A stretch of DNA of 64,000 bases from Acidobacteriaceae bacterium (GTDB taxonomy: Bacteria > Acidobacteriota > Terriglobia > Terriglobales > Acidobacteriaceae). The notes below the pieces were generated by a model. That model was given only the letters and a program-made list of their open reading frames with translations, had not been told where the DNA came from and made no database searches. The stretch spans positions 44,760 through 108,759 of the forward strand of contig JBEKDS010000016.1 of NCBI GenBank assembly GCA_050014235.1, read 5' to 3'. Numbering within the stretch: position 1 is the stretch's first letter; the number at the start of each line of letters is the position of its first letter. Of this stretch, positions 7,457-27,965 are shown piece after piece. Both the position numbers and the translations under genes were made by a program.

Positions 7457-8415
7457 TGCGTCCGCCTGCTTTTGCTCGATGGCCAGGGCCGCGCTGGCCG
7501 GCGTATAAGCAGCCGCGGAGAGTGGTGGCCCGTCGAACATAGACCGAAACAGCACCGCATTGTTGACAGCGTTTTCGTGCAGCTCATCCGTTAGTCCAAT
7601 CTCAGATCCACGAGCTTCGATCCGGTGCAGGCAGGCAACGTGACACCTACACAGTTCTTTGATCACGAAGGTGAACAGCTCTTTGGGCTTGCTATCGTGG
7701 ATGCCGCCATACTGCCCGAAGGGCGACAGACGGACCCCGACGCGATCCGCTCCGATGGCGCCGCTGACTTCCGCAACAGTTTCCAGCAGGAAACGGGGTC
7801 TGTGCTCGTGCGAACCACCGTAGCCGTCCGTGCGTGGGTTGGTTCCGTCTTCCAGAAACTGTTCAATCAGGTCGCTATTAGCCCCTGTAGTTCTACCCCG
7901 TCGAAGCCAGCCTCGATCGCATTCAGAGCAGCCCGACGAAACGCGCCGACGATGACTGGAATCTCAGCGGTTTCCAGGGCGCGTGGAATTTCCGCCTTCA
8001 CCTGTTGGAAGTCTCTCGTGAGAGCCGGAATATTCCCAACAATGGCCGAGGGCGCAACGGGCACAGAGCCATCCGGCCGCAACGAAGAATGCGAGTTTCC
8101 TCCGTTGTGAGCGATTTGCATGACGATCCCTCCCCCGCGGGCATGGACCGCATCCGTGACGACGCGCCAGCCGGCAGTCTGTTCTGCCGTATAGATTCCC
8201 GGGTCGCTTGGGTAGCCATGGGCATCGGGACTGACCGCCGTTCCTTCCGAGATGATGAGGCCCGCCGATGCGCGTTGAGCGTAATACTTGGCGTTCAGCG
8301 GGGTCGGCACGCTGTCGGCTCCCGCAGGTATCCGCGTGAGAGGCGCCATAATGATTCGATTCGGAAGCTGGAGGACCCCGAGCCGTAGAGGACTGAAGAG
8401 CGATTCAAAGGACAT
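7457..8415 (-). pseudogene. Old yellow enzyme (NemA-like alkene reductase), frameshifted and 3'-truncated
   Basis: LPNRIIMAPLTR, YYAQRASAGLIISEG, GFDGVEL; frame change near 7885 into ANSDLIEQFL...GYGGS...RVGVRLSP; ends at KQADA before the expected GRxFIANPDL. Confidence 0.85.
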
Positions 8416-8450
8416 TGCGGGCCCCTCACTTTGGCGTCTTCGTGGAATGG

Positions 8451-9156
8451 CTAGAGAAGCGTGATTTCGCCCATGTCGATTCCCACGAGCAACGGCTCCT
8501 TCACCAGCTGGTAATAGCCCTCATACGCGTACACTCGGCGCTTGGCCGGCACAATGATGCCGTCCACATCGCGATAGTCGAACGCGTAGTTCAATTCGGT
8601 GGCGTCGCCCAGAATGTCCACTGTGTAATCTTGCCGGCGCAGTAGTCCGTCGGGTCCAAAGCAGGAGACCTGTTCCTTGCAATGGCTCTTCACTTTGTCG
8701 GGGGAAATTACCTTCAACCGCCGCCAGGTTTCGCCTTCGACCTGAATCGATGGGACCTCCTCAGTCGTGAAGCCAGAGTGCGTGTAGAGGAACGGGGTAT
8801 TCAGGTAGTCCGCAATGCCTCACCGACAAAATACGCGACTTGAATGCCGTCCCCAGGGCGTCTCCCTTTGTTGTCCTTCAAAGGACTTCTCCGGGTTTAT
8901 CGCGGGCTTCGATTAGCGTACCGTCCGCCGTTTCGATCGCGATTCGGTTCGGTTCGAAGACAGCGCGCTTGTTCTGGCCGGGAAAGTCGAGTGTGACGCG
9001 TTCGTTCTGCGTCTCTGCGGTCAACACCACGTCTTTGAGAACGTCACCTTTTCCTTTGACAAACCAGATTGCCCCCGTAATCGACGCCGCAACCTTGATC
9101 GCCTCCACGCTGTTCCAGCGGGCGAGACCGCCGTGCGCTTTCACTACCAAATCCAA
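8451..9156 (-). pseudogene. Conserved hypothetical protein split by frameshifts
   Basis: LDLVVKAHGGLARW... (8878-9156) and ...FGPDGLLRRQDYTVDILG...VDGIIVPAKRRVYAY (8451-8717) read as halves of one protein, with YLNTPFLYT between them. Confidence 0.65.
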
Positions 9157-9476
9157 TAGCTCGCTTTCTCTTTACTGCTCCGTTTGCGCTCACGGTTTGC
9201 TCAACCGGCATCGCGTCTCTTGGATCCAAAACCATCGTGGCTGCTCGCATAATGGGCCATCCTCTCAGAGAATGCTGTTGGCATCCAGTGTGGTCAGCGG
9301 CAAATGTGTCTGTTGGGGACCAGGCGACCGATCGCTTGCACATGCAGCCTATCAAGTCAAGCAAACTTCGGCGAGACTGTACAGAAGAGACCACTCAACT
9401 CTGTTGAAAACGCTTTATACGGTCTTCGGTGTCATCCGCTGACCTGCGTGTTGTTAGAAGTACGTTTGAATGATGA

Positions 9477-9499
9477 TTCGAGTCCTACCTCAGGAGCCA
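9477..9499 (+). mobile_element. tRNA 3'-end fragment (att-like site, probably tRNA-Asn)
   Basis: TTCGAGTCCTACCTCAGGAGCCA = T-loop, T-stem, 3' acceptor strand and CCA; upstream sequence does not form the rest of a tRNA; lies 43 bp from the integrase-remnant stop. Confidence 0.65.
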
Positions 9500-9541
9500 A
9501 TTATTCCAATCACTTACTCTGCAACTCGATAATGCTCAGGC

Positions 9542-9745
9542 TCAGTCTTTGGGAACTTCTCGAGGGGACACCGCTCCAACTTCTTCTCCACCAAGCCCGT
9601 CCACAGCGTCTCGCAACGCCTTCTGTCCAATGTGGCCATAACTCTTCGCCACGCGAGTCGCCGTTGCCGCTGACCTGCCCAGGATGCTCGCGACGACAGG
9701 ATAGGGATTCCGGGCTTCGAGCAACCGTATGACAACGCTTAAACG
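9542..9745 (-). pseudogene. C-terminal remnant of a tyrosine recombinase/integrase
   Basis: IRLLEARNPYPVVASILGRSAATATRVAKSYGH...ALRDAV matches the box II to catalytic-Tyr region of phage integrases; the rest of the gene is absent. Confidence 0.65.
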
Positions 9746-9921
9746 TCGCCGCGCCACAGGACTCATCCTCACATCGGCGCCTCGTCCGTCCCCATCATCA
9801 GATAGCCCACCCCAATCTCTCTGAACCAGTCCAGCCTCCATCAAGCAGCTATTTCACATTGCGGGTTCTGTCGTATGCTCAAGTGGATCGATTCGGAGCA
9901 AATGAGCGGTCGATTGCGCCA

Positions 9922-10728
9922 ATGGACAATAACACTCCAGCGAATGCAGAGGAACAGTTGGAACCACTCGCCGATGGTCAAGTTCAGCGACCGGGCGACT
10001 TGGTGCGCGTCGAAGACGTAACCAAGTCCTTCGGCTCCAAGACCGCCGTCAAAGGTGTCTCCTTCTCCGTCCCCGCCGGCCAGATCTGCGGCCTGCTCGG
10101 CCCCAACGGTGCCGGCAAAACCACTCTCTTCCGCCTCCTCATGGGCATCCTCAAAGCCACCCAGGGCAGGATCATCATCGACTCGCTCGACGCCTTCGAC
10201 GACCGCGTCGAGGTCAAGCGCCTCATCGGCTTCCTTCCCGACGAGCCCGTCTTCTACTCTTACTTCTCCGGCCGCGAAATTCTCGAGCTCAGCGCCGCCA
10301 TGCATGGCCTGGATGTGCCCGCCACCCTGCAGCGAATGGACCCGCTCATCCATCAACTCAGGCTCGGCGTCGACATCTACGACTATGCGGAGGACTACTC
10401 CCGCGGCATGAAGAAGAAACTCGGCCTGCTCCTCGCCATGCTCCACCAGCCGAAACTTCTCGTGCTCGACGAGCCCACCAACGGCCTCGACGTTGAATCC
10501 ACCCGCCTCTTCTACGATCTCATCGCCCAGACCGCCGCCGCCGGCACCACCGTCCTCTTCTCCACCCACCTCATGGATCACGTCACCCGGCTCTGCTCCC
10601 ACGCCGTCATCGTCAATGAAGGCTCGCTCGTCGCAAACGGCTCGCTCGATGACCTTCGCGCCGAGTTCGGCGAGGCCAGCCTCGAGGAGATATTCCTCAA
10701 GCTCACCGCCCGGCCGCCCCAGAAATGA
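9922..10728 (+). CDS. ABC transporter ATP-binding protein (exporter type)
   Basis: GPNGAGKTT, YSRGMKKK signature, LVLDEP, STH; start uncertain (9859-9973). Confidence 0.92.
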   Translation: MDNNTPANAEEQLEPLADGQVQRPGDLVRVEDVTKSFGSKTAVKGVSFSVPAGQICGLLGPNGAGKTTLFRLLMGILKATQGRIIIDSLDAFDDRVEVKRLIGFLPDEPVFYSYFSGREILELSAAMHGLDVPATLQRMDPLIHQLRLGVDIYDYAEDYSRGMKKKLGLLLAMLHQPKLLVLDEPTNGLDVESTRLFYDLIAQTAAAGTTVLFSTHLMDHVTRLCSHAVIVNEGSLVANGSLDDLRAEFGEASLEEIFLKLTARPPQK

Positions 10729-13253
10729 AGAAGCAACCCACCTTTTGGACGACGCTCTGCCTCCTGCTTGGCGCCGCGCGGAAGCGCTCCACCGGCCGCC
10801 AGGCCCGGCAGCACGAGCTCCTCTCCAATCGCTCCGGAAACAACGCCGCCGACTGGGGCGCGGTCGGCTTCTTCTTCGCCGCCATCTTCATGGTGGGTCT
10901 CAACGTCGCCGCCGCCTTCGTGCTTCGCACCGCCATCGCCACAGCCCAGCGCGTCGAAGTCGAGCGCCAGGGAGGGATGGTCGTCAGCCGCCTGTTCTTC
11001 GAAGAGGCCGAAACCGCCGAACCGGGAGAGACCCCCGCGGGAAGAAGGAGGAAAGATGCCTTCTATCGCGCCATTTGCGCCCAGGAAGCCGCACGCATCG
11101 CAATCAGAACCGGAGGCGACCGGTCCGAGATCCAGGCCCAGCTCTTGGACTCGGTCAGACAGTACGGCACCTCGCACCTCGTCACCCAGGCACAACTCCC
11201 TCCTCAACCCGCCGGCCAGCGATCCAACGGCCGATTTCCCGCCATGATCGGCTCCATCGTCCTGCTCTGGTGGCTCGCCATGCTCGTCTTCCAGGGCGAA
11301 GGCCTCGAACTCGATCTCCAGCGCCGCCGCCATCCCATGTGGGAGTGGCTCTTCTCCCACCCCGCCCCGCCCGGCGCGATCTTCCTCGCGGAGATGCTCG
11401 CCCCCATCGCCGCCAATCCCATCTACTGGGGCGCGCCTCTCTTCGTCGTCACCATCTATAGCTTCACCTACAACTTCGCCCTCGGACTGCTCGCCGGCGT
11501 TCTCGTCGGCGTCCCCATCACGGTCGCCGCAGCATGCCTCGGCAAGGCGTGCGAGATCGCCGTCACCCTCCGCTTCAGCCCTCGCTCCCGCGGCGCCATG
11601 ATCGGCTTCATGAGCTGGATCGGCTACGCCTCCCTCATGCTCTTCCTCCTCGGCATCTTCCTTCTGCCCAGATTCATCGAAGCAACCGCTCGCGTCCTGT
11701 ACCCCGTCTCCATCCTGCCCTTCCCCTGGCTCCGCCTGTTCCTCGGCGGCCAATCCGATGGCTCTTGGTCATTCCCCGCGGGTGTGCTTGCCTGTTGGAT
11801 CCTCGCCGCCATCGTTATCGCCTTGGCAATCCGCTTCAGCGTCTGGGGCGCCCAGCTTGGCCTCAGCGGCGTCTCCGCCGGCAGCCAGCTCGGCCCCACA
11901 TCGCGCAGGACCGCCGCCCACTTCGGCAAGGAGCCTCTCTACCGCAAGGAGCTCCTCTGGTTCGTCCGCGATCGCAGCGCCATCGTCCAGACCATCCTCA
12001 TCCCGCTTACCGTCGCCAGCGTCCAGGTCTTCAACCTGCGCGGGGTCCTCATCCACGCCGCCGGCGCATGGAATTATCTCTGCGGCGCTGGCATTCTCTT
12101 CGGCACCTACTTCCTTTGGATCCTCGGCCCCAAGTCGCTCTCCTCCGAAGGCACCGCCCTTTGGATCGCTCTTACCTGGCCGCGCGGCCTCGAGAGCCTG
12201 CTCAGAGCCAAGGCGTGGCTCTGGTCTCTCATCTCCACCGGCATCGTCACTCTGGTTCTGGCCTGCGCCGCCCTCATGTTCCACGCGGACGCCTGGAAGA
12301 TCGCTCTGGTCCTCATCGGATGGTTCTTCTTCAGCCGCAGCATGGCGGAGAAATCCGTCACCCTCGTCACCATTACCTCGGAATCCGGCGAAGTCCAAAA
12401 GGTCCCTTGGGGACGCCGCCTCGCGGCCCAGCTCGGCATGGCCACCTTCGCCATCGGCATCCTCTCCCAGCAGTGGCACATCGCCGTCATGGGTATCGTC
12501 TACTCCTACGTCACCGCCGCCGCCATGTGGCAGAACTTCCGCGCGCGCCTGCCCTACCTCTACGATCCTTGGTCCGAGCAAATCCCGCCCCCGCCCACGC
12601 TCATGCACGCCATGATCTCCATCAGCGTCCTGGTCGAGTGTGGCGCCGTCCTTGCCGGCATCCTGCTGGTCATCGCAGGCCCCGCCAACATCGCCATCGC
12701 GCAGGCCATCGCCTACGCCGTCTGCTCGGTCGCCGTCTCCTTCGGCGTCATCAGTTTCCTCGCCAACCGCAACGTCTCCCTCCAGGACGTCATCCGCTGG
12801 CAATCACCCGCAAATCGAATCTCCGTCCCGCAACTTCTCCCCGCCCTGACGCTCGCAGCCGTCGGAGGCATCGCTCTCGGCCTCTTCGCTCACGGCTACC
12901 TCGCCGCTCTCCAACACATTCCCGCCACCGCCGGGGTCTTCCGCAAATCGCGGGAAGCCATGGCCCGGCTCCACGGCCTCCGCATCTCCTACGCCATCAT
13001 GGCCGTCGCCTTCGCGCCCTTCGCCGAAGAGTATCTCTTTCGCGGCCTCCTCTTCGGGGCGCTCGACCGAGAGTGGGGCGGCTGGCGCGCCGTCATCGGC
13101 AACGCGGCCTTCTTCGCGGTCTATCACCCCGTCACGTCCTGGCCGCCCGTCTTTCTCCTCGGCGTCTGCAACGCCCTGATCTTCAAGAAGTCCGGCCGCC
13201 TCGCCCCGGCGATTCTCCTCCACATGGTCTACAACGCTGTCGTCTTGATTTGA
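10725..13253 (+). CDS. Large polytopic ABC-permease-like protein with C-terminal CPBP (Abi/CAAX) intramembrane protease domain
   Basis: ATGA overlap with the ATPase stop; many TM helices; C-terminal APFAEEYLFRG, FFAVYH and LLHMVYN CPBP motifs. Confidence 0.8.
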   Translation: MKKQPTFWTTLCLLLGAARKRSTGRQARQHELLSNRSGNNAADWGAVGFFFAAIFMVGLNVAAAFVLRTAIATAQRVEVERQGGMVVSRLFFEEAETAEPGETPAGRRRKDAFYRAICAQEAARIAIRTGGDRSEIQAQLLDSVRQYGTSHLVTQAQLPPQPAGQRSNGRFPAMIGSIVLLWWLAMLVFQGEGLELDLQRRRHPMWEWLFSHPAPPGAIFLAEMLAPIAANPIYWGAPLFVVTIYSFTYNFALGLLAGVLVGVPITVAAACLGKACEIAVTLRFSPRSRGAMIGFMSWIGYASLMLFLLGIFLLPRFIEATARVLYPVSILPFPWLRLFLGGQSDGSWSFPAGVLACWILAAIVIALAIRFSVWGAQLGLSGVSAGSQLGPTSRRTAAHFGKEPLYRKELLWFVRDRSAIVQTILIPLTVASVQVFNLRGVLIHAAGAWNYLCGAGILFGTYFLWILGPKSLSSEGTALWIALTWPRGLESLLRAKAWLWSLISTGIVTLVLACAALMFHADAWKIALVLIGWFFFSRSMAEKSVTLVTITSESGEVQKVPWGRRLAAQLGMATFAIGILSQQWHIAVMGIVYSYVTAAAMWQNFRARLPYLYDPWSEQIPPPPTLMHAMISISVLVECGAVLAGILLVIAGPANIAIAQAIAYAVCSVAVSFGVISFLANRNVSLQDVIRWQSPANRISVPQLLPALTLAAVGGIALGLFAHGYLAALQHIPATAGVFRKSREAMARLHGLRISYAIMAVAFAPFAEEYLFRGLLFGALDREWGGWRAVIGNAAFFAVYHPVTSWPPVFLLGVCNALIFKKSGRLAPAILLHMVYNAVVLI

Positions 13254-23718: not shown

Positions 23719-26487
23719 TCAGGCCGTCCGCTTCCACACTACGTAGTACGGCTGATTGGAGAGGGTCGAATTCAGCGATGGATACAGCCACGCAACCTTC
23801 TCCGAGCGCAGTTCAAAGTAATACTGCAGCGGATAAGGAGAGCTGGTGTAGTCCGCGGGGACCGCCGCATGGAAGACCCCTCCCTCGCGGGTCATCGGCG
23901 CCGCTTGCCAACGCTCTGCATGGTTGACATGGCGATAATGCAGCACAACCGATACGCCTTGGCTTGCGGCTGTTGGATCCAAACTCAGCGCAAGAGGCAA
24001 CGCCTCTCCGGGACGGAAGGCGCCGGCAGGCGTGTGACCGCAACGAATCGCAGGCCGGTGGACCTTCGCGGCCACAGCTTCAATTGCACCGGACGCGTTC
24101 TGGCCCTGCGCGCTCGCCTTCCTCTCCAATTGCTGCCGCATCGCCGCGATGTCCTCGTCGATGTGCGCCAGCCGGTCGATCCAGTGGCCCCGCCGCGTCG
24201 CCGTCGATCCGTACGAGATATCCGCGCGATAGACACCCTTCGCGCGTTCAGCCATTGCAGCCCAGGCCGCGCGCGCCTTCCTGTACTCCACTAGCGCTAG
24301 TTGGCCGGCCTTCGCATCGCCTGTGTACAAATAGATTTCGAACAGCAAAGCGCTGCGCAGCTTCGCAGCGAAGAAGCGTCCCAATCCAATCTGGATCTGC
24401 ACATCTTCCTCCATCCTGCGAAACTGCGGCGTCCGTACCCGCGCGGCCGCCGTGCGCCGCGCCGCGGCGAGCGCCAGCTCCGATCCCGCGGTTAACCCAT
24501 CCAGCCACTCCGCGACCTCGACCGGGGAGTACTTCGCGCCCTGGTTCCCCGCAAGGACTTCCTTGGCGTGATCCGCAATCGTCGAGAATAGCTGCGGATC
24601 GAGCGCACTCACGGTCGCGAAGCATCTTGGGGTGGGCGTATCGCTATACGGCGAGCGGTCTTCACCCTGCACGATCGGCATGTTCTCGTACATCTCGTAC
24701 CATAGCGAATGGTTCGATGCCGAGGGCAGGTGCGCCGTCGTCAGCAGCGGCAGCACGCTGCTCGCACTACCGACCGCCTCTTCCACAGGCCCGGCCGAAG
24801 CCGCTCCAAAGTCCTTGCGCAGGAATCGCCGCCACACCTCAGGGTCGGCCTGCGGATTGTAGAGAAGCCTCCCCCAAAGCCGGTACGTGTACTCAAACTT
24901 CTTCCACTCGCCCGCCGCCGGCGTCAGCGTCTCATCCGCGTACGCCAATCGACCGCCTGCGAGCCCCGATCCCTCGCGTCCCTTGAAGAACAGCGGCTCA
25001 AATATCTCCATTCCGCTGGCGCCGCAGAAGTGTGCCGCCCGCCCATACGCCGCCGCCGCCTGCGGGTCGCCCCATAGCAGATGCCGCTGCGTCCCCGGCC
25101 ACATGCGAAAGAGCACGTCGAACTTGCGCCCCTCCTGGAAGAGGTCGGCATAGCCGTAGCGCGTGAACAGCCGGTCGCCGCTGCTCACGCTGAAGGTGCC
25201 GGTCTCGATATGCCCGGGCTTGGGAATCTCCAGCGCGCGAATGTCCGCCTGGTGGTAGCCGAGGCCCTGGTGCTCGGCCCAGAACTTCGGGCTCACCTTC
25301 ACCGGCATACCCGTGGCCACTGCGATGTCGAACATCTCCTGGTTGATGCCCTTGGCGTGCATGTCGATCTCGACCCTGCGCCCGCTCGCCGGTATGGCCT
25401 CGAACAGCGTCTTCCAGAACGGGTAGCTGCCCTCCGGAATCCCGCTCTCCCCGTGCACCCGAAAGGTGAGCCCCTCAATCTGCGGACACGCCTTCAGCAG
25501 CATCGCCAGCGCGTCGCGGCAGTAGGCCGCGTGCGTCTCCGGAGTCAGGCCCACGATGTGGTGCGTCGAGTGCGGGCTGTCCGTCCACGCATACGCATGC
25601 GTCCACAGCCCCAGCTGGAATTGAATCCCGCGCGCCGCCGTCTCCGCTGCGATGAACTGCAGCATCGCCAGGTTGCGCTCGCGCTCCCCCTCCGCCAGCG
25701 GCACCACCCGCACATCGTACCCCGGCACGCTCACCAGATATGGATAGGGAAGATGAAAGTAGTCGTCCGTCACTCCCCTGGGAAAGTCGTACGCCAGGCC
25801 AAGCGTGAAGCTGAACCGGTTGAACCGGCTGAGCGCCAGCACATCCAGATAGCCGCGCCAGAAATCCTTGTCGTAGAACCACGGCTTGTCCTCCACCTCG
25901 CTGCAAAAGGCCCGCGCCATGCTCCGCACCTGGTTCGCGGGCGTCTCGCGCACGGCATGGGTCAACTGCAACGCGCCACCAGCCGCATCGCCGGACTCCA
26001 CCCGCTCGGCGAGCTCCATCAGTCCATAGCCGAACCCGCGCGCATCGCTCGACGAAACAAGCACCGCCGGTACGTCCGCCACGCGGCCTGGCGTCAGGCT
26101 TATGCTCTCCGGCCCCTCGCGGAAGGACGCGTCTCGTGCGAACGCGGCCGCCAACTCCGACGAAGACCGGGCCACAACAATGTAGTGGGTCACCCCGGTC
26201 CGCGCCGTTGGCCGCGCCGCGCGCTCTGTCTCAATTCCCTTCTCCAGAAGCGCCAGCTGCAGCCTCTCCATCGCCCACTTGACGGATGCCGCCGAGGTCG
26301 CTGCCTCGCTCTCGTCCAGCACAAAGCAGACCTTCCCGAGCGGCGCAGCATGCGCACCAACCGACGCGCCCCCCACCGCAGCCGCACCGGCCAGCTTCAC
26401 AAACTCGCGGCGGTCGATGCGCGGAAGCTTTGTCCTCGAACGATCTAGCCGCGGAACATCCAGTCGCGGCAATCCAGGGTCTCGCAT
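23719..26487 (-). CDS. Large Tat-exported hypothetical protein (922 aa), possibly a glycosidase
   Basis: DRREFVKLAGAAAVGG twin-Arg; barrel-like segments (FRVHGESG, VSPKFWAEHQG); C-terminal YPLQYYFEL beta domain; no family recognised. Confidence 0.75.
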   Translation of the reverse strand: MRDPGLPRLDVPRLDRSRTKLPRIDRREFVKLAGAAAVGGASVGAHAAPLGKVCFVLDESEAATSAASVKWAMERLQLALLEKGIETERAARPTARTGVTHYIVVARSSSELAAAFARDASFREGPESISLTPGRVADVPAVLVSSSDARGFGYGLMELAERVESGDAAGGALQLTHAVRETPANQVRSMARAFCSEVEDKPWFYDKDFWRGYLDVLALSRFNRFSFTLGLAYDFPRGVTDDYFHLPYPYLVSVPGYDVRVVPLAEGERERNLAMLQFIAAETAARGIQFQLGLWTHAYAWTDSPHSTHHIVGLTPETHAAYCRDALAMLLKACPQIEGLTFRVHGESGIPEGSYPFWKTLFEAIPASGRRVEIDMHAKGINQEMFDIAVATGMPVKVSPKFWAEHQGLGYHQADIRALEIPKPGHIETGTFSVSSGDRLFTRYGYADLFQEGRKFDVLFRMWPGTQRHLLWGDPQAAAAYGRAAHFCGASGMEIFEPLFFKGREGSGLAGGRLAYADETLTPAAGEWKKFEYTYRLWGRLLYNPQADPEVWRRFLRKDFGAASAGPVEEAVGSASSVLPLLTTAHLPSASNHSLWYEMYENMPIVQGEDRSPYSDTPTPRCFATVSALDPQLFSTIADHAKEVLAGNQGAKYSPVEVAEWLDGLTAGSELALAAARRTAAARVRTPQFRRMEEDVQIQIGLGRFFAAKLRSALLFEIYLYTGDAKAGQLALVEYRKARAAWAAMAERAKGVYRADISYGSTATRRGHWIDRLAHIDEDIAAMRQQLERKASAQGQNASGAIEAVAAKVHRPAIRCGHTPAGAFRPGEALPLALSLDPTAASQGVSVVLHYRHVNHAERWQAAPMTREGGVFHAAVPADYTSSPYPLQYYFELRSEKVAWLYPSLNSTLSNQPYYVVWKRTA

Positions 26488-26765
26488 GGCAGAGTCCTCA
26501 TCCTAGCCCGCAGTCCGTGCACTCGTTCGGCTGGGGCGAATCAAACTCTAGCCCACGAAACGCCCCACGCGCAATCGTCCGCGCCGCATGATCCACCTGC
26601 CCGCCATCCGGCGCTGCGATAGACCGCGGCGTTCCTGTTTCGGGATGGCGCCGCAGGAATACTCTTCCTCCTGCGTTCGCAAGAGACGAAGGAATGAGAC
26701 CTTGAATTGGAAGGCAAATCCACCGGGGAGTCCGAACGATTCTTTCCGCTCAGACCGAGGACCTC

Positions 26766-26930
26766 ATGCAACCCAGAATCGCCGCCTCTCCGGCTCCTCC
26801 GGCGCAACCGAAGAAGCCCTGGGTGCCCCCTGCGATTGTGATCTTGCCGTTGCGTAGCGCGACCGGCAACAGCCCCGGCTCCAAATGCGACAAATACGGC
26901 TCGCTCTCCCACGGAACCGGCTGCGCCTAA
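26766..26930 (+). CDS. 54-aa RiPP-precursor-like peptide (not in the ORF track)
   Basis: GAGG 5 nt before ATG; MQPRIAASPAPPAQPKKPWVPPAIVILPLRSATGNSPGSKCDKYGSLSHGTGCA*; WxxPxI leader-like motif and Gly/Ser-rich core with 2 Cys and an Asp. Confidence 0.55.
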   Translation: MQPRIAASPAPPAQPKKPWVPPAIVILPLRSATGNSPGSKCDKYGSLSHGTGCA

Positions 26931-27017: not shown

Positions 27018-27965
27018 ATGGCGATCATTGGCGATCTCCCGCGAATTCGCAGGCACGCTCGACTACCGCTGTTGGTCCCCGTGGCCGCGGTCCTCTTGTC
27101 TTGCGGGCCACGCTTCTTGTCTTGTGGGCTAGGCTTCTTGTCTTTCGGGCCACGCTTCGCGCGGGCCGCTCCTCCCGCATGGGCCACCCTCCCCGCCACT
27201 CCCGCTCCCGTCTTAGGCTGCCTCCACAAAACCGTGACCGTCAATGGAATCAATCTGTATTACATCGATTCAGGAAAAGCCTCCCACAATCGCCCGCCCG
27301 TAATTCTCCTGCATGGCGGATTGGCGAACTCCGACTATTGGGGCAATCAGGTCCGCGCGCTCATGCCCGCCCACCGCGTTCTCGCGATCGACAGCCGCGG
27401 CCATGGACGCAGTACACGCGATAGCCGGCCATACGGCTACGACCTGATGGCCGACGATGTCATTGGTCTGATGGATAGCCTGCACATCCCCACGGCCGAC
27501 CTGGTCGGCTGGAGCGACGGCGCCATCATTGCCCTCGATTTGGCGATGCGATATCCGCAACGCGCTCGGAGGGTCCTCTCCTTCGCCGCCAACACGCAGA
27601 CAAGCGGCCTCATTGCCGGCGGCGAAAAAAGTCCTGTCTTTGCCCGCTTTGTCGAGCGCGAGGGGGTCGATTATCGCAGGCTCTCCGCCACGCCCAACGA
27701 GTACGGCCCCTTTGTCGAACAGGTCAGTCACATGTGGGACACCCAGCCCAACTGGACGGACGCTCAACTCGCCTCGATCTCCGCAAGCGTGCTGGTCGCC
27801 GATGGCGATCACGACGAGGTCATTCGGCGCGACCACACCGAGTACATCGCGCGCACCATTCCAGGAGCCGGCCTCTTGATCCTCCCCAACGCCAGCCATT
27901 TTGCGTTCCTGCAGGACCCTGCTCTGTTCAATGCCGCACTGTTGAACTTTCTCGACTCAAAGTGA
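27018..27965 (+). CDS. Alpha/beta fold hydrolase
   Basis: ILLHGG, DSRGHGRS, GWSDG nucleophile elbow, DGDHDE, SHF. Confidence 0.9.
   Translation: MAIIGDLPRIRRHARLPLLVPVAAVLLSCGPRFLSCGLGFLSFGPRFARAAPPAWATLPATPAPVLGCLHKTVTVNGINLYYIDSGKASHNRPPVILLHGGLANSDYWGNQVRALMPAHRVLAIDSRGHGRSTRDSRPYGYDLMADDVIGLMDSLHIPTADLVGWSDGAIIALDLAMRYPQRARRVLSFAANTQTSGLIAGGEKSPVFARFVEREGVDYRRLSATPNEYGPFVEQVSHMWDTQPNWTDAQLASISASVLVADGDHDEVIRRDHTEYIARTIPGAGLLILPNASHFAFLQDPALFNAALLNFLDSK
27094..27159 (+). repeat. Three imperfect 21-bp tandem repeats in the hydrolase N-terminus
   Basis: Encode LLSCGPR-FLSCGLG-FLSFGPR. Confidence 0.6.

Follow-up and report, generated by a model that had tools for sequence, protein, structure and literature searches.

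The 54-codon reading frame at 26766..26930 on the forward strand is, judged by its homologues, a real and conserved gene that probably encodes an A protein, the precursor of a lasso peptide of the kinase-associated, paeninodin-like type, present here as an extra copy away from the biosynthetic cluster. It lies in the window, the 64,000-nucleotide stretch of Acidobacteriaceae DNA analysed in this study (contig C16, positions 44760-108759, of the genome labelled G000). Because the gene is far from the only set of lasso enzymes in this genome, its product is most likely matured in trans.

The precursor gene and its surroundings

The features of the gene are listed below, with core residues counted from Gly34 as residue 1 and leader residues counted backwards from Thr33 as residue -1.

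26630..26765, + strand: conserved upstream region, a putative promoter and 5' untranslated leader, which aligns with orphan homologues
26757-26761, + strand: Shine-Dalgarno-like GAGGA, read directly, with the ATG 4 nt downstream
26766..26930, + strand: precursor gene (54 codons and stop), probable orphan paralogue of the cluster-encoded lasso precursor
26766..26864, + strand: leader peptide, residues 1-33, ending in Ala32(-2)-Thr33(-1)
26820..26837, + strand: putative RRE-binding motif W19-V-P-P22-A-I24, corresponding to W(-15)xxP(-12)x[I/L/V](-10)
26865..26927, + strand: core peptide GNSPGSKCDKYGSLSHGTGCA, 21 aa
26865-26867 and 26889-26891, + strand: Gly1 and Asp9, predicted isopeptide partners
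26886-26888 and 26922-26924, + strand: Cys8 and Cys20, predicted disulfide pair
Within the core, + strand: G12-S13-L14-S15, invariant tail motif (conservation across 56 members)

The full translation of the frame is MQPRIAASPAPPAQPKKPWVPPAIVILPLRSATGNSPGSKCDKYGSLSHGTGCA. The predicted cleavage site before Gly34 is taken from the invariance of that glycine as core residue 1, and the tail of 12 residues after Asp9 includes Lys10, Tyr11, Leu14, and His16. An earlier note, made from the letters of this DNA, had described a 54-aa frame with a ribosome-binding site in a 530-bp divergent gap, a [YW]xxPx[LI] motif in its leader, a Thr-Gly pair after the motif with Asp at position 9, and two cysteines. 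The frame, the GAGGA, and both flanking genes are all present; W19-x-x-P22-x-I24 fits the motif, Thr33-Gly34 follows it with Asp42 as residue 9 from Gly34, and the cysteines occupy core positions 8 and 20.

The divergent neighbors are 23719..26487 (-), which encodes a 922-aa TAT-signal protein distantly resembling alpha-galacturonidase, and 27018..27965 (+), which encodes an alpha/beta hydrolase. The gap between them measures 530 bp, or 746 bp if the hydrolase begins at 27234, the start chosen by gene callers on identical metagenome contigs. Within the genus, no orthologue of the 922-aa neighbor exceeds 60% identity, and synteny is lacking. Downstream of the peptide gene, at window positions 27094-27158, is a 21-bp tandem repeat of 3.1 copies with the consensus TCTTGTCTTGCGGGCCACGCT. 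With the hydrolase start at 27018, this repeat lies in the hydrolase frame and yields a lipobox-like heptad three times over (LSCGPRF / LSCGLGF / LSFGPRF).

A conserved gene under purifying selection

Reading frames of 54 codons are ordinary in DNA of about 63% G+C, and dozens occur in the window's ORF list, so the case for a real gene rests on homology. The best homologue in a search of 5.8 billion proteins is 73% identical (E = 3.6e-17), and a profile search of 1.84 billion representative sequences matched 51 clusters, 36 of them at E <= 1e-10, with E values down to 1e-22. One match, P0034 (2357 aa, 9 stretches), was rejected as a repeat-protein artefact. Three paralogues, 53-60% identical, are encoded in the same genome, each with a start codon and a Shine-Dalgarno sequence (GGAGG or GGAGA) positioned as in the window copy:

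C15:1844-1978, - strand
C1:361477-361620, - strand (locus L021, about 9678-9821)
C1:362116-362265, - strand (locus L021, about 10317-10466)

The precursor gene is under purifying selection. Over 30 gap-free codons (W19..S48), at which synonymous sites are near saturation, dN/dS is 0.21 between the window copy and its closest homologue (dS 0.75) and 0.07 between the two copies on contig C1, with a range of 0.07-0.65 over all computable pairs. Gene callers also place the ORF on six metagenome contigs, none of which differs from the window in the 745 nt compared. An overlapping antisense ORF of 171 codons was rejected as the gene because it shows no conservation.

These results bear on the reading that the frame arose by chance in G+C-rich intergenic DNA. 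Many ORFs of like size do arise by chance in the DNA of the window, but homologues at E values down to 1e-22, genomic paralogues, purifying selection, and gene calls on independent assemblies effectively refute that reading already and leave it a negligible probability. Searches with the peptide against Pfam (E <= 0.1) and NCBIfam (E <= 1) gave no family match, and an Rfam scan of the peptide gene and the gap returned nothing. The term "unannotated" in the earlier note therefore holds for the absence of a Pfam, NCBIfam, or Rfam model, but not for gene calling, since the ORF is called on the six identical metagenome contigs.

Signature of the precursor family

The family pattern was read from 56 sequences, all of which align without gaps. 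In the leader, W(-15) occurs in 56/56, P(-12) in 55/56, I/L/V(-10) in 54/56, and Ala(-2) in 56/56. The ring region contains G1 and D9 in every member, G5 in 55/56, and C8 in 47/56. It is followed by K/R10, H/F/Y11, and a tail with G12 (56/56), S13 (55/56), L14 (51/56), and S15 (56/56); the tail after Asp9 is 8-20 residues long. Lasso precursors are expected to start the core with Gly, Ala, Ser, or Cys, to place an Asp or Glu acceptor at position 7, 8, or 9, and to carry [Y/W]xxPx[L/V/I/F/A] in the leader for RRE binding; the window peptide agrees with all three, and Gly1 with Asp9 is found in 56/56. The check proposed in the earlier note, a search for homologues with a conserved WxxP, accordingly returned W in all 56 and P in 55.

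Threonine at the penultimate leader position (-2), the classical recognition residue, is absent from the window copy, and alanine takes its place in 56/56. Residue -1 is variable across the 56 members, with Thr(-1) found only in the window copy. The non-canonical threonine spacing pointed out earlier is thereby borne out: the threonine stands at -1 rather than -2, and the family as a whole has Ala(-2) with W at -15. Cleavage two residues later, which would restore the canonical -17/-14/-12 spacing with YxxPxL at -17 to -12 and a Ser1-Asp7 ring, was rejected because that position is S/T/H/I/V/K across the family while Gly34 is invariant.

The number of cysteines in the core is two in 46 members, zero in 7, and one in 3 (n = 56). 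Since the cysteines are mostly paired or absent, the pattern points to a putative disulfide between Cys8 and the tail in the family products. Conservation is higher in the core than in the leader, an unusual situation among RiPPs, and the conserved part could have a function other than that of a substrate.

One protein in the representative library, P0053 (416 aa), contains six tandem units in which a QRTWVPPA(M/V)T.LPI.ATA stretch, similar to the leader of this family, precedes segments of variable sequence and linkers of the type PEPQPRPP. Either a precursor with several cores or a wrongly called frame spanning tandem genes may account for it.

Lasso biosynthesis genes in the same genome

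Immediately downstream of the C15 paralogue is an asparagine-synthetase-like gene that is cut off by the start of the contig. The end of contig C27 carries the C-terminal part of a cyclase; next come a DUF3738 gene on the opposite strand and then genes for an MsbA-like ABC transporter and for a B2 peptidase. A 120-kb metagenome contig with an identical C15 peptide shows the complete, contiguous cluster. It is identical to C27 throughout and, in a comparison of 3,400 nt, to the first 2,800 nt of C15; the last ~600 nt at the C15 end are a divergent variant of the corresponding segment, probably reflecting strain heterogeneity that broke the assembly. The order of the cluster on the metagenome contig is:

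HprK-like kinase, - strand
Precursor and cyclase, + strand
DUF3738 gene, - strand
ABC exporter and B2 peptidase, + strand

On this contig the cyclase is a single gene of 616-673 aa. Two separate cyclase genes, suggested by the fragments at the C15 start and the C27 end (74% identical over 139 aa), were rejected in favor of one 673-aa cyclase, and C15:1-600 and C27:48108-48524 (locus L052) are genomic neighbors that split the lasso cyclase gene. The genome holds a single lasso cluster.

The cyclase has its best NCBIfam match to the lasso cyclase model NF033535, at 305.7 bits compared with 182.5 for the generic AsnB model and under the strict NF033535 cut-off of 525 bits. The B2 peptidase scores 74.6 bits against NF033537, for which the curated cut-off is 33 bits, and also matches PF13471. 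The kinase gene and its three homologues (4/4) match PF07475, with a best E of 3.4e-7, as well as the HprK-related models TIGR04352/TIGR04355, and the top solved structures for the kinase-like protein are HprK/P chains.

The DUF3738 gene (PF12543; G000:C27:46680-47720; L028:10681-11721, +) sits between cyclase and ABC exporter on the opposite strand and is missing from that place in genome G009. Another DUF3738 gene (L021:2743-4401, -) follows closely after the mre operon in which the two precursor copies of C1 are located. The presence of DUF3738 genes near both precursor loci may be chance.

The RRE candidate, B1, is a 99-aa PqqD protein whose gene (C15:18036-18335) is separated from that of the kinase by about 15 kb. 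B1 matches PF05402 at 53 bits and scores under the strict cut-off of its "exception" NCBIfam model. Its best PDB matches are lasso RREs, namely 9x90_B ("lasso peptide biosynthesis PqqD family chaperone") and TbiB1. The neighbors of B1 encode a PF14907 nucleotidyltransferase, GspF, an epimerase, and a sugar dehydrogenase, within a group of polysaccharide and sugar-nucleotide genes. With B1/RRE, B2, and cyclase, the genome encodes a complete maturation set, and the ABC exporter is present too. A genome-wide search for maturation genes, proposed in the earlier note, thus located RRE, B2, cyclase, and exporter outside the window.

The separation of the RRE and the PF14907 gene from the cyclase, among polysaccharide genes, recalls the loci for linear polyphosphorylated peptides (LPPs) and for paeninodin (PMC13381572) and would also suit a linear modified peptide made by RRE, HprK-like kinase, and nucleotidyltransferase without a cyclase, as in the LPPs of Bacillota. 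An HprK-like kinase is indeed present, and the invariant serines of the GSLS motif would suit it as substrates. Yet the LPP leader, YxxPxVLxHQxIxFETxxS (PMC13381572), is absent here, as the window leader has W and no HQxIxFET part. No SpI-type peptidase adjoins the RRE, which is closer to the lasso RRE 9x90_B (E = 3.3e-5) than to the other PqqD-family chain 9x8z_B (E = 0.32). Gly1 and Asp9, moreover, are invariant in orphan and cluster copies alike, which only ring formation would explain. A linear product is therefore very unlikely, and the lasso reading is preferred.

Lasso genes beside homologues in related genomes

In G028, G009, G017, a Granulicella MAG, and an Acidobacteriaceae MAG, the gene just ahead of a lasso cyclase encodes a homologous peptide; the G017 homologue has the same leader and a different core. 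An HprK-like gene is divergently upstream in four of these homologue clusters. Homologues of B1 occur in 7/61 related genomes, and 6/7 of these are among the 11 that have B2; B1 and B2 lie within about 6 kb of one another in three of these genomes. Homologues near asparagine-synthetase-like genes, which the earlier note had asked to be sought, were accordingly found in the genome itself and in five others.

Lone B2 genes are present in two of these genomes. In G009 (C62, L045:9378-9905), B2 lies between tyrS and an alpha-amylase gene on a different contig than the precursor-cyclase pair. In G017 (C337, L046:240-677), it precedes an alpha-amylase gene followed by mraY and murD, again on a contig apart from the precursor and cyclase. 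The distance of B2 from the precursor-cyclase pair in both genomes suggests that scattered genes acting in trans are normal in this lineage.

These combined results support the earlier proposal of a lasso-type RiPP precursor through the paralogue at the lasso cluster, the conserved W(-15), G1, and D9, and the enzymes encoded in the genome. A "stand-alone" peptide, by contrast, is probably not the right description, as the window peptide is a paralogue of a cluster-encoded precursor. The proposal of an "undescribed family" is correct in that the family is uncurated, but it does not amount to a new kind of RiPP.

The orphan locus and its upstream region

The window copy is located at C16:71525 of a 148,650-bp contig. 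A search of this 148-kb contig for RRE, B2 peptidase, lasso cyclase, and radical SAM genes found none, which extends to the entire contig the earlier observation that the window lacks them. Since C16 carries no lasso gene, a distance of at least 71 kb separates the window copy from the nearest one, a lower bound set by the fragmented assembly. Adjacency to cyclase and peptidase genes, a mark of lasso precursors, is thus lacking in the window copy, and the C15 paralogue does adjoin the cyclase.

The closest relatives of the window copy (P0002, P0003, and P0013) are likewise orphans. Their shared context consists of BacA, a GT4 glycosyltransferase, the peptide, a convergent gene of 119-133 aa, and a GlmU-like NTP transferase. 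Despite differing neighbors, the stretch of about 130 nt that precedes the ATG of the window copy (26630-26765) aligns with the P0002, P0003, and P0013 loci, which indicates that the orphan gene keeps its own upstream region. A search for a sigma-70-like promoter and for promoter or terminator consensus sequences at the precursor gene found none. In the RNAalifold consensus, an AUGAG/ACC segment pairs with the Shine-Dalgarno sequence and start codon, with covariation nearly nil among four sequences; masking of translation initiation by this pairing is possible on the model. No RNA element is claimed for the 5' region, as the consensus fold has almost no covariation.

The distance from all maturation genes, together with the lack of a promoter-like or terminator-like site at the gene, would fit a relic duplicate that was copied to a new locus and is neither expressed nor processed, but has not yet decayed. 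Several observations make this quite unlikely. The frame, start codon, and Shine-Dalgarno sequence are intact, and dN/dS against the closest homologue is 0.21 at a dS that has already reached 0.75. All residues for recognition, cleavage, and cyclisation are kept in the orphans. At least three other organisms retain related orphans in the conserved BacA-GT4 context, and the roughly 130 nt upstream are conserved across differing genomic contexts.

The two C1 paralogues are arranged in tandem, begin with TTG after GGAGG, and are co-directional within an interval of ~1.16 kb between mreB and mreC. In locus L021, mreB spans 10753-11820 and mreC 8344-9591, and mreD, PBP2, and rodA come next. Precursor genes within a cell-shape operon are unexpected.

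The placement of two copies within the mreB-mreC interval, the conserved upstream region of the window gene, and the conservation of the core above the leader could each be accommodated by an unmodified small protein, by a decoy that titrates RRE or peptidase to regulate the pathway, or by an unrelated role. The cluster-encoded copy has the same conserved core, however, and a conserved core is therefore no distinguishing mark of the orphans. The peptide has neither a signal peptide nor a fold-like length, and nothing observed suggests such a role, which makes these options highly improbable. The relic, linear-peptide, decoy, and chance readings all fit the conservation pattern less well than a lasso precursor.

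Comparison with known systems

Leaders of paeninodin-like lasso peptides are reported to contain WxxP, and in the PbaA precursor its W stands at -15; typical of such systems are a discrete RRE and an MsbA-like pump together with an HprK-like kinase and an NTP transferase, often in polysaccharide loci (PMC13381572). The present system matches this subtype: W(-15) is present in 56/56 members, an HprK-like kinase is encoded at the cluster, and a PF14907 gene lies beside B1.

Paeninodin and pseudomycoidin of Bacillota and the Pba system of Paenibacillus alginolyticus share with the present family the WxxP with W(-15), discrete B1 and B2 proteins, an asparagine-synthetase-like cyclase, an MsbA-like exporter, an HprK-like kinase, and a PF14907-type nucleotidyltransferase; their RRE and transferase genes are also found amid polysaccharide genes, as in G000 (PMC13381572, PMC8498205). 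The present family differs from these systems in its host (Acidobacteriaceae rather than Bacillota), in Ala replacing Thr at -2, and in its highly conserved core, G1xxxG5xxC8D9[KR][HFY]GSLS, with a Cys pair. The C-terminal Ser that serves as the kinase target in paeninodin occurs in just 8/56 members, and the window peptide ends in Ala. The genes here are also scattered, and the window copy of the precursor is an orphan.

Kinase-associated lasso precursors may lack Thr(-2), the kinase can target Ser3, and precursors with Ala(-2) have been predicted (PMC10368454). The BsfA-type precursors of Bradymonadales, Acidobacteriaceae, and Sphingomonadales are likewise kinase-associated with Thr(-2) replaced, and some come from Acidobacteriaceae (PMC10368454). 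Ser3 is phosphorylated in that type (PMC10368454) and is present in all four G000 copies. BsfA-type precursors have YxxPxL at -17 to -12, Ile/Val(-2), a Gly1-Asp8 ring, and unrelated cores (PMC10368454), whereas the window family has W(-15), Ala(-2), and a predicted Gly1-Asp9 ring. Identity with the Acidobacteriaceae Ile/Val(-2) precursors of PMC10368454 was rejected, as those are unrelated and end in ...YQADE.

The window peptide resembles the class III lasso peptide BI-32169 in its predicted ring size and in the placement of its two cysteines, but shows no sequence similarity to it and comes from a different phylum. BI-32169 has a nine-residue Gly1-Asp9 ring and one disulfide from a ring Cys to a Cys at or near the C-terminus; in the present family, the corresponding disulfide would follow from the Cys-pair pattern across members. 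The prochlorosins, lanthipeptides of Prochlorococcus, offer a second parallel, with many dispersed precursor genes served by one modifying enzyme. The present system likewise has scattered paralogues, a conserved leader, and a single maturation set, but it belongs to a different RiPP class, and its cores are near-identical where those of the prochlorosins are hypervariable.

Proposed maturation pathway

In the proposed pathway, the discrete RRE (B1, G000:C15:18036-18335) would bind the leader through W(-15)xxP(-12)xI(-10). The transglutaminase-like B2 peptidase would then cut between Thr33(-1) and Gly34(+1), with Ala(-2) placed in its S2 pocket. The asparagine-synthetase-like cyclase would link the amine of Gly1 to the side chain of Asp9 around the threaded 12-residue tail, and Cys8 and Cys20 may form a disulfide from ring to tail. 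The MsbA-like ABC transporter would export the product of 21 residues. The monoisotopic mass calculated for this product is 2006.857 Da as the macrolactam and 2004.842 Da with the disulfide as well, each phosphate would add 79.966 Da, and the masses calculated for the products of the three paralogues are distinct.

A serine may be decorated by the HprK-like kinase and perhaps also by the PF14907 nucleotidyltransferase, with phosphorylation or glycosylation possibly preceding export. Candidate serines are the invariant Ser13 and Ser15, as well as Ser3, which all four G000 copies contain. The pathway presumes that the cluster enzymes would accept a copy encoded in trans.

Biological implications

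The distinctive traits of this system are Ala(-2), a strongly conserved core, and precursors dispersed from a single enzyme set that is itself scattered. If the orphan copies are matured, one cluster would serve four precursor genes at three other loci, and nature would thereby provide a clear example of lasso precursors encoded in trans; no documented case of such precursors was found in the lasso literature cited here. The conserved core, with its predicted Gly1-Asp9 ring, Cys pair, and GSLS, suggests a specific target or a site for kinase tailoring.

A more speculative and rather unlikely extension is that the orphans make up a "precursor regulon" under separate control at cell-envelope loci, served by one scattered enzyme set, with their near-identical cores yielding a physiological signal or envelope effector. 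If this were true, each copy would have a conserved promoter and 5' leader, and dose and timing would be set at several loci. Those sites would be mreB-mreC in this genome and the BacA-GT4/GlmU-like context in relatives, and the product would not be a conventional antibiotic from a self-contained cluster.

Lasso-mining tools seek precursors near a cyclase and usually expect Thr(-2), so on both grounds they would miss or undercount this family. The family comprises about 50 sequence clusters, has no curated model, carries Ala(-2), and includes copies remote from the enzymes. For Acidobacteriaceae, about whose natural products little is known, its description provides a concrete and testable proposal for a lasso pathway.
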